64,000 nt of DNA. Source: a virus. Lineage: Duplodnaviria > Caudoviricetes. A program made the position numbers and the translations under genes. Below are positions 2,030 through 63,766 of this stretch, piece by piece (position 1 is the stretch's first letter; every line of letters starts with the position of its first letter). Location of the stretch: IMG/VR virus record IMGVR_UViG_3300033069_001774, positions 1 to 64,000 of that record. One strand, written 5' to 3'. Below the pieces are notes generated by a model, which saw nothing but the letters and a program-made list of their open reading frames with translations, had not been told where the DNA came from and searched no databases.

Positions 2030-4624
2030 ATGAAATACCTCGCTGCACTCCTGCTGTTTCCTAGTCTGCTGCTTGGGCAGACTTTCACCACGCCGATCAG
2101 CAACGGCAAACTGACCGGACCGCTCGATGGCAACAGCCAGACCATCAAGTCGCTGGGACACATCGGCACCGGCACGGCCACGCCGACGGATCTCGTGCAC
2201 ATCAAGACATCCAGCACCACGGCGGGTGTGGGCGGCATCACCATCGGTCCCGGCACCGGCGATGTGACACTGCACCGTTCCGCCAGCGGCGTGCTCACGC
2301 TCACGGGCAATCTGCAGGTGACCGGCACGATCGGCGCCAGTGCGGGCGTGGTGCTGCTCGGCGGTGCCAACACGTTCACCGGGGCGAACTCCTTCAACGC
2401 TGTGACCACCTTGGCGGGTGCGGTGTTCAGCGCTCCTTTCACGGTTCCAGATTCCGGCGATCGCGCATCAGTGCGGGGCAACCTAGGTCTGGCCATCGGC
2501 ACGGACGTCCAAGGCTGGGATGCCGCCCTCGATGACATCGCCAGTCTGGCCACTGTGGAGAACAACATCATCGTGGCGAACAGCGGCGGCCACTGGGTGG
2601 TCAAGAACGGCGCATCCGCACGCACTGCGCTGGGCGTCACCATCGGCACCAACGTGCAGGCTTGGAGCGCACGACTCGACGACATAGCTGCAATCGATGC
2701 CAGCCCGGACGCCGGCCTGATCATCGTAGGCAACGGCACCAACTGGGTGGGCCAGTCTGGATCTACCGCTCGCACTTCGCTAGGTCTCGGCACTGGTGAC
2801 AATGTCACGTTCACAAACGGCGCGTTCACCGGAACACTTTCCGCAGGCGCCTCCACTCTGGCGGCGACGTCGATCTCGTCTACGCTGGCCGTCACCGGCG
2901 CAGTTACGCTGACCACCCCGCTGGGCACAGGCAGCGGTGGTTTTGGTGTCGACTTCTCTGGCTTAGTCGCCAATCGTTTCCCTTACACCACCGGCACCGG
3001 CGCCTTCGGCAGCGCGCCTGTGACTGCCACGGCGCTGACCGTCCTGGATGATACGACCGTGACTGACATGCGCCAGACGCTGGGTCTCGGCACATCTGCC
3101 ACACACAACGTTCCTGCAACAGGCAACGCAGGAGCATCAGAGACAGTGCTGGGCAACGACAGCCGCCTATCCGATTCTCGCGCGCCCACAGGCACCGCCG
3201 GTGGCGACCTGACTGGCACCTATCCCAATCCAACCATTGCAGCCGACGCTGTAGCGCTGAGCACGGACACCGTGGGCAGTTATGTGGCGTCTCTGACCGC
3301 AGGCACCGGTGTGTCATTCGGCGGCACCAACGGCGTGGAGGGCGCCATCCCGACCATCAACATCGGCCAGTCGGTGGCCACCACTGCCAACGTCACGTTC
3401 AACAACCTGACGCTAACGGGCAACTTCAGCTTGGCGGGTAGTGTCTCTTTACCCGCTGTCACGCTGCTGAATCCGGCAACGCACGATGGGACTGCTATCG
3501 GCAGTGCATCGCTTCGTTTCTCGGATCTCTGGCTGGCCACTGGCGCCGTGATCACCTTTGGCGACTCAGGCTTAGTGGACATGACGCTGACGCACTCAGC
3601 CGGCTCTATAGCCGTCGACGGTGGCGGGCTGATCATTACCACACCAGGCACAACGCCTGGCAGCGTCGTCACCATCGACGGGGTGCAGGACCTGTCAGGC
3701 AAGACTTTGACCGCAGCAGCGCTCGCGACCAGCATTGCCCCGACAGCGCATGACGGTGTGGCGCTGGGCACGTTCGCGAAACACTTCTCCGATCTGTACT
3801 TGGCCACCGGCGCCACCATCATCTTTGGCGACGCCAGCTCGACGAACGTGACGCTCCAGCATTCCTCCGGCGTGCTGGCTGTCACTGGAGGTTACATGAC
3901 GCTGAGCGCTGCAGGTACCGGCGCGGGGAGTGTTGCCACGATTGACGGCACGCAGACCCTCACAGCGAAGACCTACAACAACGCCATCTTCACCGGCACG
4001 TGGACTGCATCAGGCTCTTCCACCTTGGACCTGTCTGGTTCCACCGGGCAGTTCAAGACACCCACCGGCAACACGACCATCAGCGGCACCGCCACAGCTG
4101 TAGGAGCAATCACACCCACCGGTGGTGTGGCCGCAGCCGGCGGCTTCTCCATGTCCCCGCGCGGCATTAACACAGGGCAAGCCCCTGCCATGGTGTCCAC
4201 CGACGGCTCTGACGCCACGGCAGTGAACACAGAGACCTACATCAGCGAGATCTCCATCCCGGCGAACTGCACGGTCACAGGCATCGCAGTGTTCAACGGC
4301 AACGCCACCGGGTCGGGCAATATCCAGGTGAGCCTGGCCGACTCCAGCGGCAACCCGATCGTTGCTGCCAAGTCTGCATCCACGACCATCGTCGGCACCG
4401 ATGCGTATCAGCTTGTTCCGTTCACAGCACCCTACAGCGCTGTGGGTCCTGCTACGTATTACATCATGGTGCAGTACTCGAGCAACACCACGCACTACAA
4501 CGCGCACACACTGGGCCACCACGGTGTCACCAAACAGACGGCCCAGACTTACGGCACGTTCACCACGTTCTCGCCGCCGACCACTTTTACCACGGCGATC
4601 GGCAACATGTGCGGCCTGTACTAG
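2030..4624 (+). CDS. Tail-fibre-like Gly/Thr/Ser-rich protein with an apparent signal peptide
   Basis: Fibre motifs ARTSLGLGT, GGDLTGTYPNPTI and LAIGTDVQGWDA; duplicated HDG.A.G....FSDL.LATGA module; N-terminus MKYLAALLLFPSLLLG-Q. Confidence 0.75.
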   Translation: MKYLAALLLFPSLLLGQTFTTPISNGKLTGPLDGNSQTIKSLGHIGTGTATPTDLVHIKTSSTTAGVGGITIGPGTGDVTLHRSASGVLTLTGNLQVTGTIGASAGVVLLGGANTFTGANSFNAVTTLAGAVFSAPFTVPDSGDRASVRGNLGLAIGTDVQGWDAALDDIASLATVENNIIVANSGGHWVVKNGASARTALGVTIGTNVQAWSARLDDIAAIDASPDAGLIIVGNGTNWVGQSGSTARTSLGLGTGDNVTFTNGAFTGTLSAGASTLAATSISSTLAVTGAVTLTTPLGTGSGGFGVDFSGLVANRFPYTTGTGAFGSAPVTATALTVLDDTTVTDMRQTLGLGTSATHNVPATGNAGASETVLGNDSRLSDSRAPTGTAGGDLTGTYPNPTIAADAVALSTDTVGSYVASLTAGTGVSFGGTNGVEGAIPTINIGQSVATTANVTFNNLTLTGNFSLAGSVSLPAVTLLNPATHDGTAIGSASLRFSDLWLATGAVITFGDSGLVDMTLTHSAGSIAVDGGGLIITTPGTTPGSVVTIDGVQDLSGKTLTAAALATSIAPTAHDGVALGTFAKHFSDLYLATGATIIFGDASSTNVTLQHSSGVLAVTGGYMTLSAAGTGAGSVATIDGTQTLTAKTYNNAIFTGTWTASGSSTLDLSGSTGQFKTPTGNTTISGTATAVGAITPTGGVAAAGGFSMSPRGINTGQAPAMVSTDGSDATAVNTETYISEISIPANCTVTGIAVFNGNATGSGNIQVSLADSSGNPIVAAKSASTTIVGTDAYQLVPFTAPYSAVGPATYYIMVQYSSNTTHYNAHTLGHHGVTKQTAQTYGTFTTFSPPTTFTTAIGNMCGLY

Positions 4625-4625
4625 C

Positions 4626-7798: not shown

Positions 7799-7869
7799 AT
7801 TTCGCCACTCCGCTGCCCACGGCGGAGATCCGGCACACAATCAGAGTGGGAGGAAAAGGAACAGCTCAT

Positions 7870-9176: not shown

Positions 9177-9276
9177 CCCACACCGGCGTCGAGCTGTAGC
9201 AGCTCCGCCGGAAACTTTCGGACGGCAAACGTCCACCCGCTGGCCCGGCGGAACCAAGGGCAAGGAAAATACGAAC

Positions 9277-19398: not shown

Positions 19399-19584
19399 AT
19401 GTCCTGGGGTCTTGCCACACACCTGGTACGCGAACACGGGACTGCCTGCGGTATTCCCTCGGGAACTGTGCGCCCCACGTCGGACATCACCAAAGTAGAC
19501 TGTCTCAAATGCCGTAAGACCCGCTTGTTCCGCGGGCTGCGCAGCGAGGCACGCGCAAAACGCACCGCTCACCATGCGCACTAA
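19399..19584 (+). CDS. Small zinc-finger protein
   Basis: H...C....CLKC. Confidence 0.55.
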   Translation: MSWGLATHLVREHGTACGIPSGTVRPTSDITKVDCLKCRKTRLFRGLRSEARAKRTAHHAH

Positions 19585-47927: not shown

Positions 47928-50900
47928 ATGCCACAGCCCATCGATCGCTTCACCCGTCGCGCAGCTTCCTGTACTGTGGAGCTGGCGCGCGCGGTGTGGA
48001 TCACACCCATGCGCCCCGCAGAGGCCTGCGCCACACCGCCCGTCACGCCGCCCCTGCAGTACATCACACCGCATGCAGTGCCTGTCGAGGCGGAGGCGCT
48101 ACCGTTACCTGCAGCGCTGAGTCTGCAGAACTCCCGGTTCTCTCTCCAGTGCGCGGACTTGGACGGTGCTGGTCCGCATGGGGCCGAAGTCATCATCCCT
48201 GCTGCATCGGTAGGGCGTTCCTTCTTCTGGACTGACGTACCTGATATCAGCGTTACCCAGCTGGCGTTTGTTTCGCAGCTGCCGGAAACTGCACTGCAGG
48301 ACATCATCGGCGGCGCGAACGTCGGGACTATTGCGCGCCTCACTGATGTGCAGGCGGCTTTTGTGACGCAGAGTCTGGACACTCTGCGTGCTGCCATTGA
48401 CGCCGAAGTTTACGCATCGGCTGTGAGCACGATCCGCTGCGTATGGCAATCTGAGCAGCAAACTGAGAGCTGCTTGGGCGCTGGCTACATGCTGTCTACA
48501 CAGACAGCGGCGGGCGATTTGGCGGGCGTGCGTAACCCGATTGTGCTTGGGGCGGGCTTTGCTGAAAGCAGCACCAGCCAGAGCGAAGCCAACGCCATTG
48601 CTAAAGCAGAGGCCAGATCACGGCTGCGGTGCTTGTTCGGCAACACGGAACAAACAGTGAAGTGCGAGGATCTAGGTTACGCCGACCCTGTGCCGACGGA
48701 TGATCCAGACGCACCGCCAGTGTCTACGGATGGTAGATACCGCGTGGGTAGTGTGCACATCAGCGCCGGAGTTTATTTCTCCGCGGAATCCCAGAATGAT
48801 GCAGACGCAAGGGCGCGCGACGCCGGCGCTAGCTTGCTGTCGTGCTTTTACGTGAACGCGCCATTGGCGCTCAGCTGCAAAGACGCATACGGCATCGAGG
48901 GTGCATTCCAGCAACCAGTAGACTACAGCACCAAGTTGCGAGGCAACCCAGTGGCGGCTGGCGCAGGTAGTTTTGTGTTGGACGCGCCTGGCAGCTCGCA
49001 AGCAGCAGTGGACGCAGCGGCAGAGCTAGCACTGGAGAGCTTTCTGCTTTGCACTTTCAAAAATGTGGCCATGGAGGTGACGTGCCCAAGCCTCATTGTA
49101 GGTGGCGTAACCTACATCGCGGCCGGCACAGAATCCATCAGCGTGCCTGCCGGGGAGTATGAGGGTAACACGCAGGCGGAGGCTGATGCATTGGCCCGCG
49201 CTTCAGCGTTGTTGCAGCTGGGTTGTCAGTACTGCAACGCGTTCATCCCACCTGCGTGTTACCCGCCGTCCTATACGCCTAAACCAGGGCAGGCAATTCC
49301 GCTGGCTGACGTGGGTCCCGACTGGAGCCCTGACGTCATTCTTGGCATGGCTGCAGGTACTATCTGTCAGCCCGACCCCGAAGACGCGCAGTTGCTAGCC
49401 AGCACGGTGGCGCTACAGCCTGTGCCGGTGACACAGCTCGCGACGGGCTGTACATACACGAATGATGAAATGTGGTTCGGGTGCCTGTCGCAACTCCCAG
49501 GCTCCCCGACGCTTCCCCGCGGTGGTTACTTTTCCCCAGCCTACGCCGCTGCAGCATTGCCGGTGCAGTTCGCGAGCTTGGCGCAGTCCGCGCAGCTGTC
49601 CCCTTTCTGCACTCCTTCTCCGATATCCGCGACGCCCTACATCGTGCTCCCTGCCGGGGCGCAAGCCGTGAACTCTCGCGACGTGCCTGCGGGTGTGGAT
49701 CCGAAAGTTCATGCCAACTACACCGCGAAGCTTTACGGACTGGCGCTGCTGGATTGCTTCTTCGCGACGCCAGAAATGCCTCTCGACTGCGCCAGCGCTT
49801 TTGAACCACAGCCGTTCATCCAAGAGGATGTAGCCAAGGCGGACGGGCAGCGTGTACGCTTGGTGTTACCCGCCGGGGCAGGTACTTCTTATGCTTCCTT
49901 TTTGGCTGCTTACGAAGAAGCCAAGCTGACCGCGCAAGGTGTGCTGAACTGCTACTACGAGAGCCCCACGCTGCAGGTGAGGTGCTGGAGTCAACAAACC
50001 ACGACTCCCGGCAGCCTGCCTGATGTTGTGAGTTCGGAAAACGACGTGTGGGTTTATGGCGATGGCACTGTGCGCTTAACCACGAGCACTGACGGTGATG
50101 TTACGTACTCGGACATCACGCTTCTGCCTGCACAGCTGGGGTCAGTGGGAATGCCGCTGGTGCTGGTGCGCGGTAGCGAACGCTCTACCATTTCCAAAGA
50201 GGATGCGCGACTGCGCGCATTGCGCAACGCGGTCAGCCTTCTGGATTGTACGTCGCAAGCTTTGGTGGCATTACTGCCTGTGTGCAGCGACAGGATGCGC
50301 GTCAAATGTGGTGCCACAGTGGAAGTCAATCCAGCAGCACCGTACACAGCAGGCACTGGCGACAAAACGCCCGCAGGGTGGCGCTATCGCGACGGCGAGC
50401 TGCATGTGGGGGACGGGCACAACTATGTCATGAGCCGCGGCGGTGTGTCCACCAACCCCTGGACGCGCCTAGACTTGGGCTGCTCTGACGATCCAGTGGG
50501 TGGTTGCGCCGGCTTGGGGTTGGAGTTGCCAGTGTGCTTTGAGCAAGGTCGCGATAAAGAGGAGGCCAACCGGCGCGCACACACGGCGGGCCGCGCAATG
50601 CTGACGTGCACAGGCTCCCCGACGAATCTTCCTGACATCCCAGGGGGTGGGGGCGGTGGCGGGGGCAACAATGGAGGGGCGCCCGAGGGGTGTCCGCTGT
50701 TCGTGTATCCTGTGCTTGACGAAAACGATCAACCGATCTCGGGTAAATTTGGCGTGACCGCCGGCTACATAAACGCGGAAGAGGTGCGTAAAAACACAGT
50801 GGATGGTGCGCCTATTCGCGATGACCCGCCATTCCGGCTCTCAATCAGCAACGGTTACATCTACTGCGGCATCAAGTACCAGCTCACGTTTATCGAGGGT

Positions 50901-51116
50901 TATTTGACTTACGCGTCGGGACCTACCGGTTTTGTGGCAGCCGCCAGCAGCCTGCCCGCAGAAGACACCCACGCCGGTAATTTTGTTGTACCGTTTGCGC
51001 GGATCATCGGTGGTGAGCTGGTGTCGAGTGTGAGCTGCGGAAATCTCTCCACAATTGTGCGTGATGCCAATCACCCCGACGGTGACAAAGCCGCCATCGG
51101 GGTTGCCAAATCTTAA
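47928..51116 (+). CDS. Large Cys-rich repeat protein (DUF5977-like repeats)
   Basis: About nine repeats of V.(P)AG...S..SQ..A...A......L.C.Y.N. Confidence 0.65.
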   Translation: MPQPIDRFTRRAASCTVELARAVWITPMRPAEACATPPVTPPLQYITPHAVPVEAEALPLPAALSLQNSRFSLQCADLDGAGPHGAEVIIPAASVGRSFFWTDVPDISVTQLAFVSQLPETALQDIIGGANVGTIARLTDVQAAFVTQSLDTLRAAIDAEVYASAVSTIRCVWQSEQQTESCLGAGYMLSTQTAAGDLAGVRNPIVLGAGFAESSTSQSEANAIAKAEARSRLRCLFGNTEQTVKCEDLGYADPVPTDDPDAPPVSTDGRYRVGSVHISAGVYFSAESQNDADARARDAGASLLSCFYVNAPLALSCKDAYGIEGAFQQPVDYSTKLRGNPVAAGAGSFVLDAPGSSQAAVDAAAELALESFLLCTFKNVAMEVTCPSLIVGGVTYIAAGTESISVPAGEYEGNTQAEADALARASALLQLGCQYCNAFIPPACYPPSYTPKPGQAIPLADVGPDWSPDVILGMAAGTICQPDPEDAQLLASTVALQPVPVTQLATGCTYTNDEMWFGCLSQLPGSPTLPRGGYFSPAYAAAALPVQFASLAQSAQLSPFCTPSPISATPYIVLPAGAQAVNSRDVPAGVDPKVHANYTAKLYGLALLDCFFATPEMPLDCASAFEPQPFIQEDVAKADGQRVRLVLPAGAGTSYASFLAAYEEAKLTAQGVLNCYYESPTLQVRCWSQQTTTPGSLPDVVSSENDVWVYGDGTVRLTTSTDGDVTYSDITLLPAQLGSVGMPLVLVRGSERSTISKEDARLRALRNAVSLLDCTSQALVALLPVCSDRMRVKCGATVEVNPAAPYTAGTGDKTPAGWRYRDGELHVGDGHNYVMSRGGVSTNPWTRLDLGCSDDPVGGCAGLGLELPVCFEQGRDKEEANRRAHTAGRAMLTCTGSPTNLPDIPGGGGGGGGNNGGAPEGCPLFVYPVLDENDQPISGKFGVTAGYINAEEVRKNTVDGAPIRDDPPFRLSISNGYIYCGIKYQLTFIEGYLTYASGPTGFVAAASSLPAEDTHAGNFVVPFARIIGGELVSSVSCGNLSTIVRDANHPDGDKAAIGVAKS

Positions 51117-52061: not shown

Positions 52062-52103
52062 ATTTTCAGGTTGCGGGCGCTGCGGGTGTGGCCAGAATGC
52101 TGC

Positions 52104-52514
52104 ATGCAATTTTTATCTGTGTTACTCGCGGTATGGGTATGCGGTCTGCTCGTTGTGTGCAGTATCCTCCAGTGCTGGTTTTCCTCCTCGCTGCCTAGCG
52201 AACTGCTCCTCCTGGCGCGACAACTAGGCTGGCACAAACACGACGCCGATTTCTGGCCAGATCATCCTGAAGACGCGGGACGGGATCAGTGGATAGTCTG
52301 GGCAAACATGCAGGTGAGTCTGGGGGTGTTTCCGCGTCGCTTGGTTGTGCTGCTCACGTGTCCTACTTGCTTCGCCGTGCACGCTGCAGCGTACACGGCG
52401 CTGGGCACTGTGCTTATCTGGCGGCCTGCCGAGCTTAATGCTTTTGTGCTGTGGTTGGGTGCTGTCGGTTCGTGGGTATTTCCAGCGGTGCGTCTCACAC
52501 AACCAAAATCATGA
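52104..52514 (+). CDS. DUF1360-like membrane protein with CxxC
   Basis: Several transmembrane segments and LLTCPTCFAVH. Confidence 0.6.
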   Translation: MQFLSVLLAVWVCGLLVVCSILQCWFSSSLPSELLLLARQLGWHKHDADFWPDHPEDAGRDQWIVWANMQVSLGVFPRRLVVLLTCPTCFAVHAAAYTALGTVLIWRPAELNAFVLWLGAVGSWVFPAVRLTQPKS

Positions 52515-52972
52515 AAGGCAGCATAACCAGCACAGGCAACATTCAGTGGCGCCTTTTTCGCAGAGACGCCACGGGCAATCTGCGAGCTTGCGTCATGGTG
52601 ATCGAGAAAGACACCAGCATCGTGCTGACAGAGAAATGCGAGGAGGATACGCCCGCACCTCCAGAGGTCGCACAAACCGACTCATCGGGACCTCTAGCAC
52701 ACCTGACTAAGTTCGGCATCCCGCACAAGATCAAGGCCGGTGCCGATGGGCATGCGGTCATTGAAGTCTACCCCCACAAGGCACCGGTGCGCACAAAACG
52801 CATCATGCGTTTCTTCGATTTGACGACCCCTTGCGATTTCCCACAGTGTGAGGAGCTTCGCCGGAGGTGGCTGGAAGAGAAAGAAGCACTGGGTGAAAAT
52901 TGCACGGACTGCGCTGCCAGCGCGCTGCAGCGCAGGTACATGCATCAGTTGGGTGATATTCTCCCCCCGTGA
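52511..52972 (+). CDS. Cys-motif protein
   Basis: PCDFPQCEELR..W..E....NCTDC..SAL.RRY. Confidence 0.65.
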   Translation: MKGSITSTGNIQWRLFRRDATGNLRACVMVIEKDTSIVLTEKCEEDTPAPPEVAQTDSSGPLAHLTKFGIPHKIKAGADGHAVIEVYPHKAPVRTKRIMRFFDLTTPCDFPQCEELRRRWLEEKEALGENCTDCAASALQRRYMHQLGDILPP

Positions 52973-53145: not shown

Positions 53146-53175
53146 GCCCGGCGCATGTTGCGCCTAGAATGGGGC

Positions 53176-53889
53176 ATGGCACAAGAATGGGAACCCGCTT
53201 ACACACAGTGGCAGCAGACACAGACTGCTGACGATCTGCATTCCACTGTCCATGCGCTGTCGCCGGTGATCCATCGTGCAGTCACAGCCATTGGCGCTGC
53301 CGACGACCCCGCCGTGGTGTCCAAAGCGCGCCTGCTCGCGGCCGGTGCTGTGCGGTCCTACAGTCCAGAGCACGGGGCAGCCTTACCCACGTGGGTTGCG
53401 CACGCCCTGACACCATTGCGCCGCTACAAGCGGCTCAGCGGGCAGACATTACAAGTGCCTGAGCGTATTCAGCTGGATGCCTTTCACTTGGACAACGTGC
53501 GCAAGCAATTCGTCGATGCCCACGACCGGGAGCCCGACCAGGTCGAGCTGGGAGACGCGGCACGCATGGCACCACGGCGCCTGAGGGAGGTGCAGCGTGC
53601 GCAGTTCAGCATGCCCGGAGAGAATGCGATGGAAGGCGGCACGTCACAACTGCTGCAGAGTCGCCCGGAGTTTTCGGATGAGGCGATGGATTACGTTTAC
53701 CGTGACGCAGACTATGTGGATCGCGCGATCATGGAGGGGCGCATGGGCTACAACGGGGTGCCTGTGCTAGATACGCCAAAGCTGCTGCAGCGCACCAAAC
53801 TGTCCCCGTTTCAACTCAGCCGGCGCGCTGCAAGCCTGGCTATGCGCATCCAAAAAACCTTGGGACACCTGGAGGGTACCGCGTCATGA
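53176..53889 (+). CDS. Sigma70-family-like phage sigma factor
   Basis: AVRSYSPEHGAALPTWV (region 2-like), LQVPER and DREPDQVELGD (region 3-like). Confidence 0.7.
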   Translation: MAQEWEPAYTQWQQTQTADDLHSTVHALSPVIHRAVTAIGAADDPAVVSKARLLAAGAVRSYSPEHGAALPTWVAHALTPLRRYKRLSGQTLQVPERIQLDAFHLDNVRKQFVDAHDREPDQVELGDAARMAPRRLREVQRAQFSMPGENAMEGGTSQLLQSRPEFSDEAMDYVYRDADYVDRAIMEGRMGYNGVPVLDTPKLLQRTKLSPFQLSRRAASLAMRIQKTLGHLEGTAS

Positions 53890-54230
53890 TTCAACCCGCG
53901 ACCACGTCACAGGAGGCCTACAAGGAAATCGCTGAGATTGAGCGGATGCTGCGGGGTGCGGCATCCGAGCGCAAGCTGTTCGCCGAGCGACACGGTGGGG
54001 AGGATATGACGTTTTCCGCCATTGTTATCCCTGCCGCCGCCGAGTTGACGCAAACTGACAAACCCGCAGCTACTTCTGCGAACGCCCGCATGCGTGCCAC
54101 ATTTTTAGCGGCACTTAAACGGGATGCGCTGCATCGCTACGCTACGCGCGGCGACTTGATGCGGCAGGCTACACAGCGGGAAATCCTCACAGCCTACGAG
54201 CTCGGGCGTGCACTGGAGCTAACAGCATAA
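53886..54230 (+). CDS. Hypothetical protein
   Basis: Coupled ORF. Confidence 0.55.
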   Translation: MIQPATTSQEAYKEIAEIERMLRGAASERKLFAERHGGEDMTFSAIVIPAAAELTQTDKPAATSANARMRATFLAALKRDALHRYATRGDLMRQATQREILTAYELGRALELTA

Positions 54231-54619
54231 TGCAAAGCTTGCGCATAACTTTTGACAAACTGAATGGCTGGACGCTGCATCCGGATGAAGTCGTAGATGG
54301 CTTCGCGGACACCGTGCAGTGCGCGCTGGTCAACGCCACTACGCAACGCGGTACTGTGGAGGCTTTTCCTGCGGCAGGAACCGATTTGCTGCGACAAGGC
54401 GCGCTGGGGCTGCTGCTGGATTTGCCGATGGCGCGACATGCGTGTAATTTTGCCGCGGCAGAAACTGCAGAATTTGTGAACAGCCATATAGACGACCCCA
54501 CTGTTAGCATCGATCAATTTAACATGCAGCCTGTCGTGCTGGCAGACGGAGCCCTGCAGCTTGAGCTGCGTCTTGTATCCCCCGCCGGTGTCACATACGG
54601 CTCACTTTTGACCAACTGA
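54230..54619 (+). CDS. Baseplate wedge protein (gp25-like)
   Basis: T.RGT...FP..GTDL pattern; directly before the J-like gene. Confidence 0.55.
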   Translation: MQSLRITFDKLNGWTLHPDEVVDGFADTVQCALVNATTQRGTVEAFPAAGTDLLRQGALGLLLDLPMARHACNFAAAETAEFVNSHIDDPTVSIDQFNMQPVVLADGALQLELRLVSPAGVTYGSLLTN

Positions 54620-54620
54620 C

Positions 54621-56363
54621 ATGTTCGACATCTTCGCCCACTACTTCCCCACCGCCGACGAACTCAGCCCCGCCGAGCTGCAGGATGCCCACGCGCGGTG
54701 CGTCGCTTGGCTGCGCCCTGCGGCACCCACCTTGAACATGAGCCCAGGTTCACCTTTTGGCGCCGCTGCGCTTCTGCCCCTGGTGCGTGTTATCGCAGGT
54801 CTTGAAATCGCCATGGATCGCATACGCAATGACCTGACCACAGCCAACGTGGCGGCAGGTACTGTATACGACTGCGCTTTCGTCGAAAGCTATTTGCGAG
54901 CTTTGGGTGGGCGCAGGCAAGAGAGCGTGGAGTACAGCGGACACGTCATTCTGGAATTCGCCAATGACGCAGACATCAACATCCCCGCAGGTGTGCAGTT
55001 TTTGTTCAACAGCGCCGATGTACTGCTGCCTCGCGTAGAGCAGCAGCAGTCAATTCACATCTTGCGCTCCGGCTCAGTGCGGCGCGCCCCCAATGACTTC
55101 GTGCTGACGCCTTTCACCTCCAGCACATTCGCTGTGCTGGTCCCCGTGCGTGGAACGCCACAGACAGATATCACCGCAGGCACCACGGCTGTGATCAGTC
55201 AGGAAGTCTCCGGGCTTGTTGCAATTACCGCTGCCTACCTGTTCATCGCTGGGCGCAGTAACAATTCTGTGCAAGCTATAGCCCGGCGCGCCACGCAGTC
55301 GTTTGCAGCATCCGGTTTCATTACGCGCGATGGTATTCGCGAGCAACTACTGCAGGTTTGGCCTGACCTGCTCAGCGTCTCCTCGGCGTTGTCGGGAGAC
55401 GCTGAGCAGCTGCGCGGCGCCACGAATGCTTTGGGCATCGCCGCAGGCGCTGCTGATATCGTAGTGCGCTCGGCAGCTAAGACAGAGTTCACGCAGACTG
55501 TGCGCCTGGATTACTTCGCCGAACAAGACGGCGTTGCTGTGGATAAGTTCATCGGTGTATGGCGTCCGGTGGCTACGCCTATCCGACTGGCCGATATCCG
55601 TTGGACAGGCAACAGCGGCATTGATCTTCGGCCGACTGAGGACAGCGCGTATCTGCTTTCCCGCTCCACTAATCCTGCTAAAGCTCCGCTTTTAACCAGC
55701 GCGTTCTCCGAGCTGGAGGAGCTGACTTTTGTGGTGTCCATGCCGCGCTCTGTTGCCAATGTGCCGCTGCTCACAACCGAGGTTGATGCTGCTGGGCAAG
55801 CCTATGCGCTGTTTGATGTAACGTTTGTGGGAGATCCCGCCGTTGCGGATGTGCAGCGCTATGTGGACGCGGAAACACCTGCTGGTGTAGACGTTCTGGT
55901 CCGTGCGCCTTGCCCGATTGTGTTCTCGCACTTGGAGCTGGGATACACCAAGGTTCCCGGGCAGCTGTTCAATTTGGCGCAAGCTATTGATGAGACCCAG
56001 AACTATCTGCGTGCGCTTTCTGCGCCTGCGCGTTTTAGCGCGTCACGCTTGCACGACATTGCATACTACGCCGGCGCGGAGGACGTCAATTACACCAGCG
56101 TCACAGCACGCCTGCTGCTGACATTGGCGCGCTACGTTTTACCCGCCGACGCCGCAGATCCCACAACAAGCCTGACGGATTGCCTGGCGGATGCCTTGCT
56201 TGTGGACAGCATTGTGCTGAGCGATGTCTTAGCGCTGGTGCCCTCTTACCGCGACCCGCGCATGGGCACAGCCGACACCCGCATGGGCGTAGCGTCTTAT
56301 CGCAATGTTTCTTATGAGCTGCCGTCCAACGTCGTGAGCTTCCAACCACACCTCACTGTATGA
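54621..56363 (+). CDS. Baseplate J-like wedge protein
   Basis: L.M.PGS.F..., G.V...F.....IPAG..F and G..DI.V patterns. Confidence 0.65.
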   Translation: MFDIFAHYFPTADELSPAELQDAHARCVAWLRPAAPTLNMSPGSPFGAAALLPLVRVIAGLEIAMDRIRNDLTTANVAAGTVYDCAFVESYLRALGGRRQESVEYSGHVILEFANDADINIPAGVQFLFNSADVLLPRVEQQQSIHILRSGSVRRAPNDFVLTPFTSSTFAVLVPVRGTPQTDITAGTTAVISQEVSGLVAITAAYLFIAGRSNNSVQAIARRATQSFAASGFITRDGIREQLLQVWPDLLSVSSALSGDAEQLRGATNALGIAAGAADIVVRSAAKTEFTQTVRLDYFAEQDGVAVDKFIGVWRPVATPIRLADIRWTGNSGIDLRPTEDSAYLLSRSTNPAKAPLLTSAFSELEELTFVVSMPRSVANVPLLTTEVDAAGQAYALFDVTFVGDPAVADVQRYVDAETPAGVDVLVRAPCPIVFSHLELGYTKVPGQLFNLAQAIDETQNYLRALSAPARFSASRLHDIAYYAGAEDVNYTSVTARLLLTLARYVLPADAADPTTSLTDCLADALLVDSIVLSDVLALVPSYRDPRMGTADTRMGVASYRNVSYELPSNVVSFQPHLTV

Positions 56364-57685
56364 TATCTTTGGATGCACTACCGGTCAGTCCAGGCATGCG
56401 CTTCAGCGGTGACGGATGGGACAATCTGACGGCCCCGTCCGCTGAGCTGGTGGGGCGACTGGCGCATGCAAGCATGGAGACGTCCACGCTCTGGCACCGC
56501 ATCACGCAGCTCCCCGACGCTGACGGTAGCTCGATGCGCGCTGTAACCTTCCACCCTTCTGAAATTGGCGTGGAAGGACTTGTACCTGCGCGCCTTGTCA
56601 CGCGTGCAGCTGATGGCTTGAGCTCCTTCTCGTCGTCTACCGATCTACAAGCACACTCTCTGGATAACACCGCACCTTGGGTGACACAAGAAGGGGACAT
56701 CGTGACAGCTCTAGGCGCATGGCTAATGCTCCCAGTACCTGGCGCGATGGTGTCCGAACGCACACGCACCACGACACAAACATGGTACACACTTCCCTTG
56801 AAAGTGTCCGGGGAAGTGGCGAGCATACGCACACAAGCTGGGGAGCTGTTGTTGGCGGGTGTCGACTTTGTGCACGCTTTTGATTTGTTGTTCTTCCAAG
56901 AGCACCCCAGTTCCATGTTTCCCGGTGGTGCGTTCTGGTGCGTACTATTTGTGGCTGATGTGTCTCCCACGGCATCGGTCAATGGTGTAGACGCGCCAGC
57001 TGCTGCGGGCGGTGCTTTGGCTGTGCTGCTGCGGGAGGTACCCACAACGGAGCGCATAGAGCACGCCGTAAACGCCGCGCTAGGCGTTGTAGCGCTGCCT
57101 CGCGCAGGTGTACTGCACGAGGTGACGGCACTGCCTGAGGGCTTCCGTTACGGTTTCGACTGGGGTGATGTGCTGTGCGCTTACGAGCACACAGCTCTGG
57201 ACGCTGGGCGTTACTACGCAGCCGGCACCCAAGTTGGCGCGCCAGTGCGTCTGTACACGCGCGGAAGTCAAAGCGCGGACTGGTGGCGCGCGCTTGACTG
57301 GACCTGGCCGGTGTCCCTGCAATGGCTTTGCCCTGCGACCAAAAACTTGGCAGTGTCCAACCGCACAGTGCGCGCGGAAGGCTACGCTGTGGCGGGGGAT
57401 ACCTGCGTGAAACTCTATATCGACGGCGCGCCTGAAGACTTGCAGAAATACTGGGGTTGGTGCGCACAGGCTGAAAAGACCGCAGGGCGCCAGAGACTGG
57501 CGACTCGCTTGAGCCTAGGTGTGGGCGACTCGACAGAGATTGATATGCTGGCCCTGTTGTTCGAGCTCGCCGGGTCTCGGGCCGTGGTAGTGGACATCAC
57601 CACCAATGCCGCAGAATACACCTGGGATGTCCTACGTCGTTATGCCCCCTCGACGGCTGTGTTTCTTCCGCGCTTCTTGCATTGA
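56360..57685 (+). CDS. Putative baseplate wedge protein
   Basis: Follows the J-like gene; PT...I..A.NA.LG. Confidence 0.55.
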   Translation: MISLDALPVSPGMRFSGDGWDNLTAPSAELVGRLAHASMETSTLWHRITQLPDADGSSMRAVTFHPSEIGVEGLVPARLVTRAADGLSSFSSSTDLQAHSLDNTAPWVTQEGDIVTALGAWLMLPVPGAMVSERTRTTTQTWYTLPLKVSGEVASIRTQAGELLLAGVDFVHAFDLLFFQEHPSSMFPGGAFWCVLFVADVSPTASVNGVDAPAAAGGALAVLLREVPTTERIEHAVNAALGVVALPRAGVLHEVTALPEGFRYGFDWGDVLCAYEHTALDAGRYYAAGTQVGAPVRLYTRGSQSADWWRALDWTWPVSLQWLCPATKNLAVSNRTVRAEGYAVAGDTCVKLYIDGAPEDLQKYWGWCAQAEKTAGRQRLATRLSLGVGDSTEIDMLALLFELAGSRAVVVDITTNAAEYTWDVLRRYAPSTAVFLPRFLH

Positions 57686-57710
57686 GCTGGTGTGCATGTA
57701 ATTTAACCGC

Positions 57711-58256
57711 ATGACAGTTACCCTGCAGCGTTCTCAAAGCACACGCGCCATCTCGGCGGGTGTGCTCCCGCTATGGCCTGTATTGTTGCAGGCTGTGGTT
57801 ACAGGTGGTGACATGCCGGCCGCCATATTCGTGTACGAGGCTAAAACTCGGGACGGACAACCAGCTGACAGATTTCGCGCTGTGGCTTCCGTGCAACAGA
57901 TGCTCGAGCTACCCGCTTCCCGAGAGCAACGCGGTAGCAGTTCTTACTACAGGAGCGCGTATGCTTATTTTGCAATGCGCAATCCGCACGACGTCACAGA
58001 TACAATATCCGCTATCCAATCTGACGTGGTGCAGCTTTTGAAAGGCTGGCTAGCCAAGGAGGCGCTCAACACAAGTGACACAATTGAGATAACCGTGACA
58101 TCGCCTGCGGACGTAGCATCCAGCACGATTGTTGCGTTGAATGCGGCTGTGCGCGAGGAACTAAGCCCCGATGGTCAATCTTTGAATCTCTACAACGCTT
58201 CTGGTGTCTACCTGGGCACAATACCCGTTATGAACTATGGCCTACCTAATAAATAG
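57711..58256 (+). CDS. Hypothetical structural protein
   Basis: ORF before the fibre genes. Confidence 0.6.
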   Translation: MTVTLQRSQSTRAISAGVLPLWPVLLQAVVTGGDMPAAIFVYEAKTRDGQPADRFRAVASVQQMLELPASREQRGSSSYYRSAYAYFAMRNPHDVTDTISAIQSDVVQLLKGWLAKEALNTSDTIEITVTSPADVASSTIVALNAAVREELSPDGQSLNLYNASGVYLGTIPVMNYGLPNK

Positions 58257-60951
58257 CTTCGTCGCATTTTTGCTTTTGTCTGCTTTGGCGCTGGGTCAAA
58301 ATGGCCCCGCCGTGGGGCAATTCTCGATCCCGGGGCGCGTGCACGCAGACGGGGGTTTGACGCCATTCAATTTCGCGATGACGCCGCTGCGGTTGTGGGG
58401 CACTAACTCAGCAGGCGCGCCTCAGCCTATCGCGCTGGGGTCGGGTTTGTCTTTGTCGGGTGGGACTCTTACGGCTTCCGGAGGCTCCGGAGGTGGGTCG
58501 CTTAATTCTGTTGCATTGACAGCTCCTTCAATTTTCACTGTGACGGGCTCACCCCTGACCGCAGACGGCACAATAGCGCTTTCTCTCGGCACGCAAACGG
58601 CGAACAAAGTATGGGCCGGTCCGGCTTCTGGAGCTGCGGCAGCTCCCACGTTCCGTGCATTGGTAGCGAATGACTTGCCGGATATGTCCAGCGTGTATCA
58701 ACCGTTTGCAGCAGCGCTTACCACGTTCGCCACAAACGGTTCTGCGTATTATCGATCGCGCGCTAATCACACTGGGACTCAACTCCTGGCGACCATCAGC
58801 GATGCTGGATCCCTGGCGGGACTCAGCGCGGTTACTACTTCGCAAATCACCGATGGCACCATCACCGATGCGGATATCTCAGCAAGCGCGACCATTGCAC
58901 TGTCGAAGCTGGCGACGGACCCCTTGGCCCGGGCCAACCACACAGGCACCCAGCTCCTGGCGACCATCAGCGACGCCGGCGCGCTGGCTGCCCTGAGCGC
59001 CGTGACCACCTCGCAGATCACCGACAGCACCATCGTTAATGCGGACATCAGCACCTCTGCAGCCATCGCGCTGTCGAAGCTGGCAACGGACCCTCTAGCA
59101 CGTGCAAACCACACAGGCACCCAGGACTGGAGCACTCTGACCAACGTGCCCGTAAACCTCAGCACTTATGCAGGCATCGCACCTTCGCCCAATGTGCAGA
59201 CCTTGCTGGGAGCTGCAAACTTTGCAGCGTTTAAAGTCTCTCTCAGCCTGGGCAACGTCGAGAACACAGCATTATCAACGTGGGCGGGCTCAACAAACCT
59301 GACCACACTTGGTACCATTACAGCAGGCACGTGGAATGGCGCCGCCATTGGTGATGCCTACATCTCGTCAGCTTCAGTATGGAGCGCCAAAGAAAGCGCG
59401 TTGACGTTCTCGACGGGGCTCACCCGCTCGGTTAACACCATCACGGTCAATGCCACGCAAAGCATTTCCAAGCTGAGCAATCTGACCAGCAACGGTTTCG
59501 TAAAAGCCAGCGGCGGTGACGGTACGCTCAGCATTGACACCAGCACCTATCTGACGTCAGCCGCTGCCGACAACGTCTACCAGCCGCTGAACAGCAATCT
59601 CAACACGCTGGCGGCGGGCTTTGGAGGCCTTTTTGTTTCACCTGGGCTAGTTCGCTGGAATGGCACGGGTTATGAGCTTTTATCGAGCGGCGTCCCAACA
59701 ACGGCAGGCGGCACAGGCCTGTATGTTTATACGCTCGGGGACATGCTTTACAGCAGCGGCAGTTCAACCGCACTATCCAAACTTTCAGGCAACACGTCTA
59801 CCACAAAGAAGTTCCTCACACAAACCGGCGATGGCTTAGCATCTGCCGCCCCCGCATGGGGAACAGTCGCCGCCAGTGATCTCACCGGTACGTCTGCCAA
59901 TGTGCAGACGTTGTTAGGTGCCGCTGATTATGCCGCGTTCAAGGCATCGCTTAGTTTGGGGAATGTTGAAAACGTCGCCATCAGCGGGTGGGTGGGGTCT
60001 AGTAATATCCTAACCGTTGGAGCAGTGAGCAGCGGCATCTGGCAGGCCACCGCCATCGCGGATGCTTACATCTCTTCAGCCTCAATTTGGAACGGCAAGG
60101 AAAGTGCCCTGACCTTTTCCTCTCCGCTATCCCGCAGCACCAACACTATCAGCCTTGCGGCCAGCGGTGTCACGGCTGCCACTTATGGGACGAGCACCGC
60201 AGCTCCCAGCCTCACGGTCAATACCTATGGTCTGATCACGGGTGTTACAACAAACACGATCACCCCCGCCGTTGGCAGCATCACCGGCTTGGGAACGGGT
60301 GTTGCGTCAGCGCTTGGTACCAATACCGGCTCATTAGGAGCACCGGTGCTTTTCAATCTCGCTGGTGGCACCCCCAGCTCCATCACTCTGACCAATGGCA
60401 CCGGCCTGCCAGTCTCTGGTATCACGTCGAGCACCACGACGGGTCTTGGCCTTGGCAGCATCGAGCTCGGACATGCCAGCGATACCACACTGACTCGCTC
60501 ATCTGCCGGCGTGCTGGCGGTAGAGGGTGTGAACGTGTTGCTTTCCGGTGGGGCGCTGGGAACACCTTCCAGTGGCAATGTGACAAACTGCACGGTCAAG
60601 GAACATATTATTGTACCCTGCTCGGACGAAACGACCGCGCTCACAACTGGTGTAAAACGCACCTTTCGCATGCCTTGTGCGATGACGCTGACCAGCGTCC
60701 TCATCGAGGTTAACACGGCCCCGACCGGCTCTGTAATCGTGGTCGACGTCAAAGCTGGGGGTAGCACGATATTTTCGACAAAGCCACAAATTGCCATTTC
60801 CGCCTTCGACAGTTACGGCGGCGCGGTTCCCGGTGTGCTTTCTACAACCTCCCTACCCATCAGGACAGAGATCATTATTTCGGTCGATCAGATCGGAAGC
60901 ACCATCGCCGGAAAAGGGATCAAGGTCACCTTCATCGGAACCCGTCAATGA
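58237..60951 (+). CDS. Tail-fibre-like protein with an apparent signal peptide and internal repeats
   Basis: AGPASGAAAAPTFRALV, three RANHTGTQ at 171-nt spacing, a duplicated LSLGNVEN module; N-terminus MAYLINSFVAFLLLSALALG-Q. Confidence 0.75.
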   Translation: MAYLINSFVAFLLLSALALGQNGPAVGQFSIPGRVHADGGLTPFNFAMTPLRLWGTNSAGAPQPIALGSGLSLSGGTLTASGGSGGGSLNSVALTAPSIFTVTGSPLTADGTIALSLGTQTANKVWAGPASGAAAAPTFRALVANDLPDMSSVYQPFAAALTTFATNGSAYYRSRANHTGTQLLATISDAGSLAGLSAVTTSQITDGTITDADISASATIALSKLATDPLARANHTGTQLLATISDAGALAALSAVTTSQITDSTIVNADISTSAAIALSKLATDPLARANHTGTQDWSTLTNVPVNLSTYAGIAPSPNVQTLLGAANFAAFKVSLSLGNVENTALSTWAGSTNLTTLGTITAGTWNGAAIGDAYISSASVWSAKESALTFSTGLTRSVNTITVNATQSISKLSNLTSNGFVKASGGDGTLSIDTSTYLTSAAADNVYQPLNSNLNTLAAGFGGLFVSPGLVRWNGTGYELLSSGVPTTAGGTGLYVYTLGDMLYSSGSSTALSKLSGNTSTTKKFLTQTGDGLASAAPAWGTVAASDLTGTSANVQTLLGAADYAAFKASLSLGNVENVAISGWVGSSNILTVGAVSSGIWQATAIADAYISSASIWNGKESALTFSSPLSRSTNTISLAASGVTAATYGTSTAAPSLTVNTYGLITGVTTNTITPAVGSITGLGTGVASALGTNTGSLGAPVLFNLAGGTPSSITLTNGTGLPVSGITSSTTTGLGLGSIELGHASDTTLTRSSAGVLAVEGVNVLLSGGALGTPSSGNVTNCTVKEHIIVPCSDETTALTTGVKRTFRMPCAMTLTSVLIEVNTAPTGSVIVVDVKAGGSTIFSTKPQIAISAFDSYGGAVPGVLSTTSLPIRTEIIISVDQIGSTIAGKGIKVTFIGTRQ

Positions 60952-62057
60952 AACGCTTCACCACCATCCTTTGCGCCCTGCTACTGCCGTTGCTGCTGTG
61001 CTCGACCATCTATCTCGACTACCCCGAGACTTCCGCAGCAGGCCCCACGGCATTTCTCGCCACGGTCAACAATTCCTCCAGTGGTTTCACCCTGCCGCTG
61101 GTGAGCGGTGTCACGTATGACTTTTACGTGACCTGGGGGGATGGCAGCGCGGTGGATCACATCACCACCTGGAATCAAGCCCAAGCCACGCATAACTACC
61201 CCACGAATGGCAGTTATCAGATGAGCATCACAGGCACGATGCCGCGCTGGTATTTCAATTACAGCGGCAGCCGTTTGAAGCTCAAGTCGGTTGATTCATG
61301 GGGTTCGATTGCGTGGTCATCCATGGACTCCGCCTTCAGCGGCTGCTCCAATTGCGTGAGCTTCCCCACTGGCGGCGATTTTTCAGCGGTGACTAATTTT
61401 AACTATGCCTGGGCGTATTGCTCGGGGTTGACGAGCTTCCCGCTCATCGACACCAGCCATGTCACCAATTTTTCCAATGCATGGTATAACTGCACCGGGC
61501 TCACGAGCTTCCCGCTCATCAACACCAGTGCTGCCACCACGCTCGCTTTTGCCTGGGCTTACTGCCAGGCCTTGACGAGCTTCCCGCTCATTGACACCAG
61601 CCATGTCACCAGTCTGTATAGCACGTGGATTGTCTGTAATCATCTCACGAGCTTCCCGCTCATCAATACCAGCGCGGTTACCAACATGAACACTACCTGG
61701 GGTTATTGCTCGGGCCTCACGAGCTTCCCGCTCATCGACACCAGCATTGTGACTGACATCTCGACGTGCTTTTACAGCTGCAATCAGCTTACCAGCCTGC
61801 CCGCGCTTAATCTGACAGCAGCGACCAACACACTCAATGCGTTTTTAAACATGTCAGCCATGACAAGCTGCAATGTTTTGAATCTCAAGGTGACGACATC
61901 CTTCGCGAGCAGCAACATGGGAGCAGCGGCACTAAACACCTTGTTTACTAATCTTTCGACTGTCACCAGCAAAACGATCACGGTCACTGGAAATCCCGGG
62001 GCGGCAACCTGCACCCCAAGTATCGCCACAGGCAAAGGCTGGACCGTCACGCAATGA
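60948..62057 (+). CDS. PKD-like plus BspA/DUF285-type leucine-rich-repeat adhesin with a signal peptide
   Basis: VTWGDGS...THNY...GSY..SITG, then 24-aa repeats FPLIDTS.VT....AW..C..LTS. Confidence 0.8.
   Translation: MKRFTTILCALLLPLLLCSTIYLDYPETSAAGPTAFLATVNNSSSGFTLPLVSGVTYDFYVTWGDGSAVDHITTWNQAQATHNYPTNGSYQMSITGTMPRWYFNYSGSRLKLKSVDSWGSIAWSSMDSAFSGCSNCVSFPTGGDFSAVTNFNYAWAYCSGLTSFPLIDTSHVTNFSNAWYNCTGLTSFPLINTSAATTLAFAWAYCQALTSFPLIDTSHVTSLYSTWIVCNHLTSFPLINTSAVTNMNTTWGYCSGLTSFPLIDTSIVTDISTCFYSCNQLTSLPALNLTAATNTLNAFLNMSAMTSCNVLNLKVTTSFASSNMGAAALNTLFTNLSTVTSKTITVTGNPGAATCTPSIATGKGWTVTQ
61431..61735 (+). repeat. Five exact copies of ACGAGCTTCCCGCTCAT at a 72-nt period (coding)
   Basis: Copies start at 61431, 61503, 61575, 61647 and 61719. 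Confidence 0.9.
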
Positions 62058-62061
62058 CCCC

Positions 62062-62532
62062 ATGAATAAAATTCTTTTCAACACCCAGACGCAGAGTTTT
62101 CAACCTTACCCGCGTGATGACGATGAAGAGGTGATCGGCCTCGATCCGATCTATTTGGTCTACACCGTCAATCAAGACGCACCGCCCTCGTACGATCCTG
62201 CGCTGCAGCACCTGCAGCAGACGGAAAGCGTTGATCACACCGCCCGTACTGTTCAGCGTGGCTGGGCTTTGGTAGACAATGTCATCAGCGTCTCCATGAC
62301 CTCCATGCGCCAGGCTTTGACCGATGCCGGGTTCCGCCAGGCCGTGATCGATGCCATCGCAGCCATCCCTGATGAAACGCAGAGGCTTTACGCGCAAGAC
62401 TGGTGGGCTACATCACCCGTGGTGGAGAAGGAACATCCGCTTGTGATTGCGCTTGCTGCAGCTCTTGGACAGACACAGGAACAAGTCGACGCCGTATTCG
62501 CTGCGGCGAAACTTAAAGATTCTGCCGCTTGA
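62062..62532 (+). CDS. Tail-fibre assembly or chaperone-like protein
   Basis: PP.YDP..Q.L...V.RGW; V...I..I.D......WW....VE..HPLV......LG.T..QVD..F..A. Confidence 0.6.
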   Translation: MNKILFNTQTQSFQPYPRDDDEEVIGLDPIYLVYTVNQDAPPSYDPALQHLQQTESVDHTARTVQRGWALVDNVISVSMTSMRQALTDAGFRQAVIDAIAAIPDETQRLYAQDWWATSPVVEKEHPLVIALAAALGQTQEQVDAVFAAAKLKDSAA

Positions 62533-62560
62533 TGTTTCACCTGTCATTAACGTGATCAAT

Positions 62561-63766
62561 ATGCATACCAAACTTGTACTCGTAATCTTGCTGCTCTGCG
62601 GCCGAGGTGTTTATGCGCAGTCGGCTGTGCAAAGCCCGCATCAGCCACGCAGCGCTGCGCTCAGCACAATAGCCACCAATGGGGCTGCCTATTATTTGAA
62701 TCGCGCCAATCATACAGGCACCCAGCTGCTGAGCACAATCAGTGACGCCGGAGACCTGGCCGCCCTGGACACCGTGACGTCTGCGAAGATTGAAGACCTC
62801 ACCATCGTGTCAGGAGACATCGCCAATGGAACTATTGCTCGTGGCAAATTAGATCCCGGCGCCTATTCGACAGGTGGCAATTGGACGGCGGACAGCGGCA
62901 AGCTGGTTCAATTTCAAAACAACGGCGAGATCACCGCCACCAGTTCAGTTACGGCGGTTGCCACAACAGGTACGTGGAAACAGTCTGGGCAGGTGAAGCC
63001 AGACGGTTTCCTTTTTCAAAACGTCGGGGGGGTGTCCGGCCGGTTCTTCAACTTTATAATGCCCGCCATCTCCGGCTCCCGCGCTGTTTATCTTCCCAGC
63101 GAATCAGGAACCCTCGCCCGCGTGGAGGACATCACACCCGCGCAACTGACGCAGTCGGGCGCGACCACCGGGCAGGGTATTGTGTGGAACGGGACCGCCT
63201 GGGCACCCGGGACTGTTGGCGGGGCGCTCACCGTTGGCACCACTGATGTCGCGAGCGGTGCTAGTGGTCATTTGATGTATGAAACGTCGGGCAATAAACT
63301 TGGCGAAATTTCTGGTGTCACCAGTGATGGTGCTTCTCTTTTGTTTTCCAGCAGCGCGACCCTTAGCTGGAACAGCGACACGTATGTGGCACGAAAGGCC
63401 GCAGCGACTCTTCAGGTCGGTCAGGACGTAAATGCAGATGCCGCGGACCAAGTAATCAAGGCTGCTGATGGGGTCACCGGAACCAACCGCAATGGCGGGG
63501 ATCTGACCATGGCGTCTGGGAATTCCACGGGCACAGGCACCAGTGCTGTCACAGTCAAAACACCAGCGGCCGGCAGCAGTGGAACGACCGCGCACACAGC
63601 CGTAGAGCGCCTCCGCATTGACAGTACAGGCGTGTGGATTGAAAACACCACAGCACCCGCTTCCAATCCTGCCGCAGGCTCTTTCATCCTCTACGTGGAC
63701 CCAGCAGACAACACACTTCGCGCACGCGGATCCAGCGGAACCATCACCATCCTCGCAAACCCATGA
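62561..63766 (+). CDS. Tail-fibre-like protein with an apparent signal peptide
   Basis: MHTKLVLVILLLCGRGVYA-Q; shares the RANHTGTQLL.TISDAG module; ERLRIDS.G. Confidence 0.7.
   Translation: MHTKLVLVILLLCGRGVYAQSAVQSPHQPRSAALSTIATNGAAYYLNRANHTGTQLLSTISDAGDLAALDTVTSAKIEDLTIVSGDIANGTIARGKLDPGAYSTGGNWTADSGKLVQFQNNGEITATSSVTAVATTGTWKQSGQVKPDGFLFQNVGGVSGRFFNFIMPAISGSRAVYLPSESGTLARVEDITPAQLTQSGATTGQGIVWNGTAWAPGTVGGALTVGTTDVASGASGHLMYETSGNKLGEISGVTSDGASLLFSSSATLSWNSDTYVARKAAATLQVGQDVNADAADQVIKAADGVTGTNRNGGDLTMASGNSTGTGTSAVTVKTPAAGSSGTTAHTAVERLRIDSTGVWIENTTAPASNPAAGSFILYVDPADNTLRARGSSGTITILANP

Follow-up and report, generated by a model that had tools for sequence, protein, structure and literature searches.

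Why would fiber proteins of a tailed phage begin with signals for export, when the textbook assembly of such phages is wholly cytoplasmic? This question is raised by the IMG/VR record IMGVR_UViG_3300033069_001774 (Duplodnaviria; Caudoviricetes), a linear sequence of 101,920 bp estimated to be ~50% complete, which holds nearly all of its genes on the + strand at a GC content of 59–60%. We analyzed its first 64 kb (positions 1 to 64,000, hereafter the window), in which four + strand genes encode fiber- or adhesin-like proteins with strikingly hydrophobic N-termini: P0001 (904 aa; 58237..60951), P0002 (369 aa; 60948..62057), P0003 (401 aa; 62561..63766) and, at a separate locus, P0004 (864 aa; 2030..4624). 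A sequence-only reading of this DNA had taken these N-termini for Sec signal peptides and the proteins for possibly exported virion appendages, and literature searches found no published description of Sec signals on tailed-phage fibers. Judging from the comparative evidence below, the four N-termini are very probably genuine Sec-type signals, real and under selection, and the proteins that carry them are, with good confidence, true members of a fiber cassette.

The four N-termini that had been quoted are all present in the translations, namely MAYLINSFVAFLLLSALALG (P0001), MKRFTTILCALLLPLLLC (P0002), MHTKLVLVILLLCGRGVYA (P0003) and MKYLAALLLFPSLLLG (P0004), and Gln does directly follow the apparent cleavage site in three of them (P0001, P0003 and P0004). 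Signal-peptide calls were rule-based throughout. All four proteins contain an uncharged h-region of ~8–15 residues, with 11-residue Kyte–Doolittle maxima of 2.4–3.1 compared to <2.3 in other ORFs, and a positively charged n-region is found in P0002 (MKR), P0003 (MHTK) and P0004 (MK), though not in P0001. By rule, the c-region site is good in P0003 (VYA/Q, the slash marking predicted cleavage; 19-aa signal) and acceptable in P0001 (ALG/Q; 20 aa, 58237..58296) and P0004 (LLG/Q; 16 aa), and in P0002 the hydrophobic segment spans residues 1–18. None of the four carries a lipobox of the form [LVI][ASTVI][GAS]C, to which the LLLC of P0002 does not conform, and no conserved paired-cysteine pattern was found across them.

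To place these N-termini in the context of the whole 101,920-bp record, we scanned a rough set of 122 ORFs for hydrophobicity. Nine were flagged and seven of these look real, i.e., P0001–P0004, two ORFs that resemble membrane proteins (10006 and 52071) and a lipoprotein at 11590. Structural proteins had been put forward as negative controls, and within this ORF set no head or tail-core protein displayed a hydrophobic N-terminus, nor did any ORF in the 64–102 kb region. The resulting enrichment among fiber-like genes (six vs. the rest) was significant (Fisher p ~6e-5). The lipoprotein ORF (79 aa; 11590–11829), whose signal is canonical for its class (lipobox LASC), might encode an outer-membrane spanin.

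We then evaluated whether relatives of P0001 retain the signal, using a profile of the P0001-type mature N-terminal domain (N-domain; 58297..58476 in P0001, ~60 aa) built from six sequences, with the signal excluded to avoid circularity, and run against 1.84 billion protein cluster representatives. The profile matched 123 representatives. The domain begins at residue 17–41 in 115 of them, and the remaining eight are internal or repeat matches. A hydrophobic, signal-like segment precedes the domain in 115/115 of the representatives with an N-terminal match, with Lys or Arg in the n-region of 114. The signal/domain junction reads [AGSC]Q in 67/115, against an overall Gln frequency of 2.8%, and Gln occupies +1 in 17 of 23 inspected homologs (58–74% across family counts). 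The same holds outside this profile: for the first 400 residues of P0001 and the first 300 of P0004 there are hundreds to thousands of homologs, among which every one with the same N-terminal architecture starts with a signal-like segment, and all eight P0004 orthologs have a 16–18-residue signal followed by Gln. A 276-aa protein at 63763 that by eye resembled a signal-less N-domain was not supported by the profile.

Although conserved in character, the segment changes fast. Within the P0004 group, identity was 0.42 for the signal compared to 0.60 for the following 40 residues, and the mature part was the more conserved in 27 of 28 pairs. Close pairs display the same pattern, with 4/19 identical residues in the signal vs. 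51/60 in the mature start for P0009/P0014, 8/17 vs. 57/60 for P0251/P0257, and 7/15 vs. 53/60 for P0004/P0126, and P0003 is 70% identical over 307 aa to a 384-aa protein of the syntenic relative L027, whose own signal, MTRYILLLLMLTSLTAHA, is different. Throughout, the fast-changing segment keeps its charge, hydrophobicity, length (16–25 residues) and small residue at −1. Consistent with this layout, an AlphaFold2 (AF2) model of the P0001 N-terminus from an 80-sequence alignment predicts a helix at residues 2–18 (pLDDT ~90) that stands apart from the domain, with the cleavage site in a loop, and then six beta-strands (pLDDT ~80–85). In a Foldseek search of the PDB with the N-domain model, the best E-value was 0.93, and the top rows were fiber shafts, none significant.

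These patterns bear on two alternatives. The first is that the hydrophobic N-termini are artefacts, arising from start codons called in the wrong place or from untranslated sequence that happens to be hydrophobic. The P0003 start gives this some footing, as its ATG at 62561 is an in-frame codon of a longer ORF that opens with TTG at 62447 and has three candidate starts, and starts cannot be checked by Shine–Dalgarno motifs because the genome lacks them (7/71 genes of the record vs. a background of 29/300). However, this ATG lies 29 nt past the stop codon of the upstream gene, and the starts of the signal-bearing genes abut or overlap preceding stop codons. The inspected homologs have no conserved internal start after the signals, so that the concern of true starts downstream of the hydrophobic stretch finds no support there. 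Hydrophobicity is moreover kept across hundreds of diverged homologs on independent contigs, contigs of two other studies are identical across 57600–61162, a stretch that covers the P0001 and P0002 starts (58237 and 60948), and the P0001 signal segment is identical in contigs of sequencing runs X1 and X3. Because the signals are conserved, turn over as signal peptides do and fit the AF2 layout, mis-called starts can be set aside, and we regard an artefact as extremely improbable.

The second alternative accepts the segments as real, and supposes that they act as an uncleaved membrane tether or an assembly aid, for instance by keeping fibers on the inner membrane up to lysis, or are buried in the tail or bypassed late, with the fibers assembling on the cytoplasmic side. 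To our knowledge, tailed-phage assembly is cytoplasmic in every case studied, which counts for this view, as do the missing positive n-region of P0001 and the missing canonical cleavage site of P0002. It would also accommodate two features of the cassette described below, i.e., a partner protein that remains without a signal, and signal-less versions of the same proteins that are clearly functional in other phages. Yet a structural interface should be no less conserved than the domain that follows it, and is disfavored here because the segment diverges faster than that domain while the signal layout is retained. In addition, Lys or Arg at the N-terminus would, by the positive-inside rule, keep most of the protein out of the cytoplasm, and the modeled helix is detached from the domain. 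Overall, we judge such a tether or assembly role to be quite unlikely.

If the signals are real, the next question is what they are attached to. The fiber character of the protein bodies, also part of the sequence-only reading, was borne out by a match to phrog_2012 (minor tail protein) and by tblastn matches to annotated tail fibers of S-CRM01 and ORM_20. A relative of P0004 at NCBI is named “putative fiber protein”, and genome searches with P0001 and P0004 returned few or no useful named matches. P0001 itself combines the signal peptide and small beta-rich N-domain with a shaft of RANHTGTQ repeat units and a C-terminal tip domain, P0002 is a BspA-like leucine-rich-repeat (LRR) protein (phrog_22899; DUF285 at 24.4 bits, below the Pfam cut-off of 25), and P0003 is a second fiber-like protein. 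Between the latter two lies P0366 (62062..62532; phrog_6034), a 156-aa acidic protein with no signal. Within the LRR gene, variant contigs of all four sequencing runs compared display a compensating pair of a 1-nt deletion and a 1-nt insertion at 61922–61926.

Both in the window and in the syntenic relative L027, the signal-bearing genes appear to stand at the end of the tail module, P0004 being the one at a separate locus. They follow presumed baseplate genes (244, 114, 129, 580 and 441 aa; 53155..57685, + strand), a position assigned from gene order and size only. In L027/L028, counterparts of these upstream genes at 30–47% identity are likewise followed by a signal-bearing fiber, a signal-bearing Laminin_G_3 protein and another signal-bearing fiber-like protein. 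The family also occurs in other backbones, including the temperate siphovirus-like L030/L031 (tape-measure, integrase), L003 and L004 (DNA polymerase A, SNF2), and L029, a 138-kb contig. The travelling unit encodes a fiber, a lectin-like or LRR protein, and a P0366-type protein of ~156 aa, in this order. P0366 homologs are found 3′ of fiber genes in L030, L032, L009 and L028 and in 35 IMG/VR loci, the latter forming our cassette survey. The P0366-type protein never carries a signal, and Atlas leads for it point to tail-fiber-assembly-like clusters, with scores <0.9. Two side observations come from these relatives. A weak Erv1/Alr sulfhydryl-oxidase match lies within the structural module of L004 (5124–5672), a phage with a signal-bearing fiber, and the tail module of L030, which is temperate, has two collagen-like genes adjoining a 2OG-Fe(II) oxygenase gene (6051–9345), a possible prolyl-hydroxylase pairing.

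Ordinary, signal-less fiber cassettes provide a close point of comparison. Those of L080, L086 and L097 have shafts, tips, an LRR or lectin-like partner and a P0366-like gene homologous to the ones here, at up to 77–92% identity. Unlike the cassette studied here, they have no signals, and their anchor is fused to the fiber; in the signal-bearing fibers, the anchor is replaced by the signal and the small N-domain. One of them is L080, a 39-kb IMG/VR phage contig whose positions 3605–7468 hold the same distal cassette as window positions 61044–62445 in signal-less form. The C-terminal 137 aa of P0001 are 77% identical to the L080 fiber, the P0366 homolog is 85% identical, and L080-type variant contigs are present together with the window phage in three runs (X3, X6 and X11), at higher depth in the last. 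In the cassette survey, signal-less lectin-like proteins open with MSFIINPYRF or MNLVNSYxF, whereas signal-bearing ones have the signal right before the same motif (...GG-VLINSYRF). Because signal-less relatives begin at the very motif that follows the signal here, the signal appears to be an N-terminal add-on to ordinary fiber-cassette proteins, gained or lost recently. Since both the fiber and the tip protein are signal-bearing in the window, L027, L030, L032 and L009, it seems to have been gained on the two together. Taken together, the conservation in 115/115 representatives, the fast turnover with the n-h-c layout kept and the cassette homology strongly support the part of the sequence-only reading that saw real signal peptides on real fiber proteins.

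The co-occurrence of the two cassette types gives weight to another explanation, namely functional signals on proteins that are exported for a purpose other than to be virion fibers. Placed in the envelope of the infected cell, they would mask or occupy the receptor or its precursors, which would block superinfection by competitors that use this receptor or prevent progeny from binding to debris; alternatively, they would be displayed on the cell or act as adhesins. The appeal of this view lies in the co-occurring phage, whose signal-less tip modules are nearly identical (fiber C-terminus, LRR protein and P0366 homolog at 77%, 92% and 85% identity), so that an exported copy would compete for the same receptor. 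The movement of the cassette between backbones is also compatible with it. Phages are known to act on the envelope in this manner: the T5 lipoprotein Llp, a phage-made receptor blocker, blocks FhuA, and Llp, like lambda Lom and Bor, reaches the envelope by means of host export signals. Unlike the proteins described here, however, these are small non-fiber proteins encoded outside the tail module. Additional precedents come from two other systems, which differ in what is exported. In Porphyromonas gingivalis phages, signals of the signal peptidase I (SPI) type with Gln at +1 were described on genes of unknown function and read as envelope modifiers (Matrishin et al. 2023, PMC10367356); they expose the same residue as the signals here, although no tail fibers were named among them. 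In Bdellovibrio bacteriovorus, mosaic adhesive trimer (MAT) fibers combine a signal peptide and a conserved beta-rich domain with phage-fiber-like trimers, and are displayed on the bacterium's own surface (Caulton et al. 2024, PMC10769870).

Several features argue against such a non-virion role. In both the window and L027, the genes appear to stand where fiber genes usually do, closing the tail module, and all long fiber-like proteins in the 102-kb record (~50% complete) are signal-bearing, which leaves no obvious signal-less long fiber for the virion. No outer-membrane sorting signal was found by Pfam or NCBIfam searches, and in L029 and L030 a separate anchor gene is kept directly 5′ of the fiber gene, which would make little sense if the distal part never joined the particle. 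Weighing both sides, we consider a purely non-virion function unlikely, if clearly worth retaining.

The separate anchor genes deserve closer attention. In L029 and L030, signal-less proteins of 178 and 210 aa, encoded directly 5′ of the signal-bearing fiber, match the N-terminal 150–200 residues of the unsplit, signal-less fibers of L086, L097 and L080 (E-values 7e-11 to 3e-28), while the C-termini of these unsplit fibers match the signal-bearing ones. The shaft opens with the same motif in both, i.e., after the anchor in unsplit fibers and after the N-domain in signal-bearing ones. No counterpart of the N-domain was found in the unsplit fibers. Conversely, the unsplit-type anchor domain is not present in the signal-bearing fibers, and was not detected in the window. 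Because the shaft motif is shared and the N-domain is absent from unsplit fibers, the covalent link between anchor and shaft appears in L029 and L030 to have been replaced by two genes, one for a putatively cytoplasmic anchor and one for a distal fiber with signal and N-domain. These split anchors would fit the needs of a two-compartment route, and are in our view the strongest argument that the exported protein may still serve the virion. In the window, the equivalent position is taken by a signal-less 181-aa protein (57711..58256, + strand) that overlaps P0001 by 20 nt and is a candidate virion-side partner, with a homolog only in L027. A C-terminal tail motif that proteins 5′ of signal-bearing fibers seemed to share was seen by eye only; we rejected it, as it is absent in L032, L003 and L004.

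Of the mechanisms considered, the best single one is that exported distal fibers join cytoplasm-built particles at lysis, a choice that we make tentatively. Under this model, the distal fiber set would be translocated by Sec to the periplasm, and cleaved by signal peptidase I so as often to expose a Gln, which can cyclize to pyroglutamate. The fibers would then trimerize in the periplasm. Not until lysis opens the envelope would they meet the cytoplasm-built particle, whose anchor or baseplate proteins have no signal. Docking would be mediated by the small beta-rich N-domain, which stands where ordinary fibers have their covalent anchor domain. Export, cleavage, pyroglutamate formation and late docking are all steps that we infer. 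Because no outer-membrane sorting domain (Por_Secre_tail or PEP-CTERM type) was found in the four proteins by Pfam or NCBIfam, the periplasm is the likely destination.

That MAT fibers exist shows that export and extracytoplasmic folding of such fibers are feasible, and among described systems theirs is the closest architecture. Like the proteins here, MAT fibers have a signal, a beta-rich N-domain, a fiber shaft and swappable tips, a likeness in architecture only. In contrast to them, MAT fibers are encoded by the bacterium whose surface they occupy, and their N-domain is ~130 aa, with no homology shown to the 60-aa domain. The proteins here are encoded on phage contigs of several backbones, in tail modules beside ordinary fiber-cassette genes.

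A number of observations nevertheless weigh against assembly from exported fibers. Most sampled phages carry the cassette without signals: only 5 of 101 upstream ORFs in the cassette survey were signal-like, and one of these is probably false (internal start). A 352-aa LRR protein of L080 is 92% identical to P0002 from residue 25 onwards, and starts at MSMMLNSYRF with no signal. A cassette that functions without signals, along with this close relative, indicates that the signal is not needed for the basic function of the proteins. As the P0366-type protein is signal-less, it would occupy a different compartment from its presumed fiber clients, and docking after lysis would need to be efficient in dilute surroundings. 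The signals of the window are themselves not uniformly typical, since the n-region of P0001 lacks Lys and Arg, apparently the sole such case among the 115 family representatives, and P0002 has no canonical AxA site close to where its hydrophobic stretch ends (~residue 18). The absence of an outer-membrane sorting domain from the Pfam and NCBIfam results counts here as well. A hidden Markov model (HMM) of the anchor, built from the L029/L030 proteins and the unsplit fibers, did not detect the 181-aa protein at 57711, and none of the upstream genes at 53155..57685 received a baseplate name from Pfam, PHROGs or NCBIfam. Extending the model to the entire family, i.e., proposing that at least 115 clusters (at 50% identity) from several tailed-phage morphotypes represent Sec-exported, periplasm-folded fibers mounted at lysis on fiber-less particles, by a two-compartment route unknown for Caudoviricetes, is a doubtful generalization at this stage.

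Which envelope the proteins would cross depends on the host, for which two sets of leads were obtained. Along its whole length, signal included, an L030-type Laminin_G_3 protein shares 83% identity with one encoded on a phage-sized contig of 42.9 kb that was binned in a Prosthecobacter MAG (metagenome-assembled genome), and this contig also carries a signal-bearing fiber, a signal-bearing lectin and a P0366-like gene. GC content is similar (59.0% in a sample of the MAG vs. 59.3% in the phage), the MAG likewise displays no Shine–Dalgarno enrichment (15/149), and ~4 of 14 clear host signals in the bin have Gln at +1. These data are compatible with a Prosthecobacter-like Verrucomicrobiota host, as a lead. 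However, the N-domain profile was found in only 0–1 of 401 Verrucomicrobiota genomes searched, and with the domain essentially absent from these genomes the lead rests on one binned phage-sized contig. Signal peptides were not reported in the paper on the verrucophage P8625. The second set points to Bacteroidota. The Gln frequency at +1 in the family (58–74%) resembles the Bacteroidetes Q-rule, i.e., Gln at +1 of SPI-type signals (Bochtler et al. 2018, PMC5837995), which is a Bacteroidota feature, whereas the host lead for this phage is a Prosthecobacter bin. The shaft of the P0251 subfamily (around WNGTTWAP) matches 78 loci, L115–L192, almost all of them in Bacteroidota genomes (Saprospiraceae, Lewinellaceae, Chitinophagales), and the N-domain is in none of these 78 loci.

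The remainder of the record gives further context for the phage. Its RNA-polymerase beta′-like gene, of the multisubunit type, indicates a large phage distant from every isolate: the 616-aa product (19574–21424; phrog_25354, phrog_3015) has as its closest isolates Vibrio and Salmonella phages at ~29–30% identity. Near-identical DNA was detected in wastewater, freshwater and river metagenomes from several studies, and there was no RNA run among the listed sequencing runs with such DNA. For the genes presumed to encode sheath, tube and capsid, no usable result came from Pfam, PHROGs or NCBIfam, and an AF2 model of the 580-aa upstream protein, from a three-sequence alignment, was too low in confidence for use (pLDDT 42.5). 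The structural module also includes a 1062-aa protein (47928–51116) without a signal peptide that contains 32 Cys (3.0%) and a DUF5977 match. Its L027 homologs are similarly Cys-rich (20 in 547 aa and 18 in 596 aa), and two small Cys-rich ORFs (52071–52972) lie 3′ of its gene.

The presence or absence of a signal peptide has been used to sort “bacterial” from “phage” fiber-like proteins (PMC6199706). If export signals are obligatory in a large, conserved class of fiber proteins, then either part of the host-recognition apparatus of these phages matures outside the cytoplasm, or the phages routinely export fiber copies to alter the envelope of the infected cell. Natural pairs, i.e., the cassette with and without signal at 92% identity and fused vs. 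split anchors, make this question directly testable, and the answer matters, under either reading, for predicting host range, for annotation and for engineering receptor-binding proteins.

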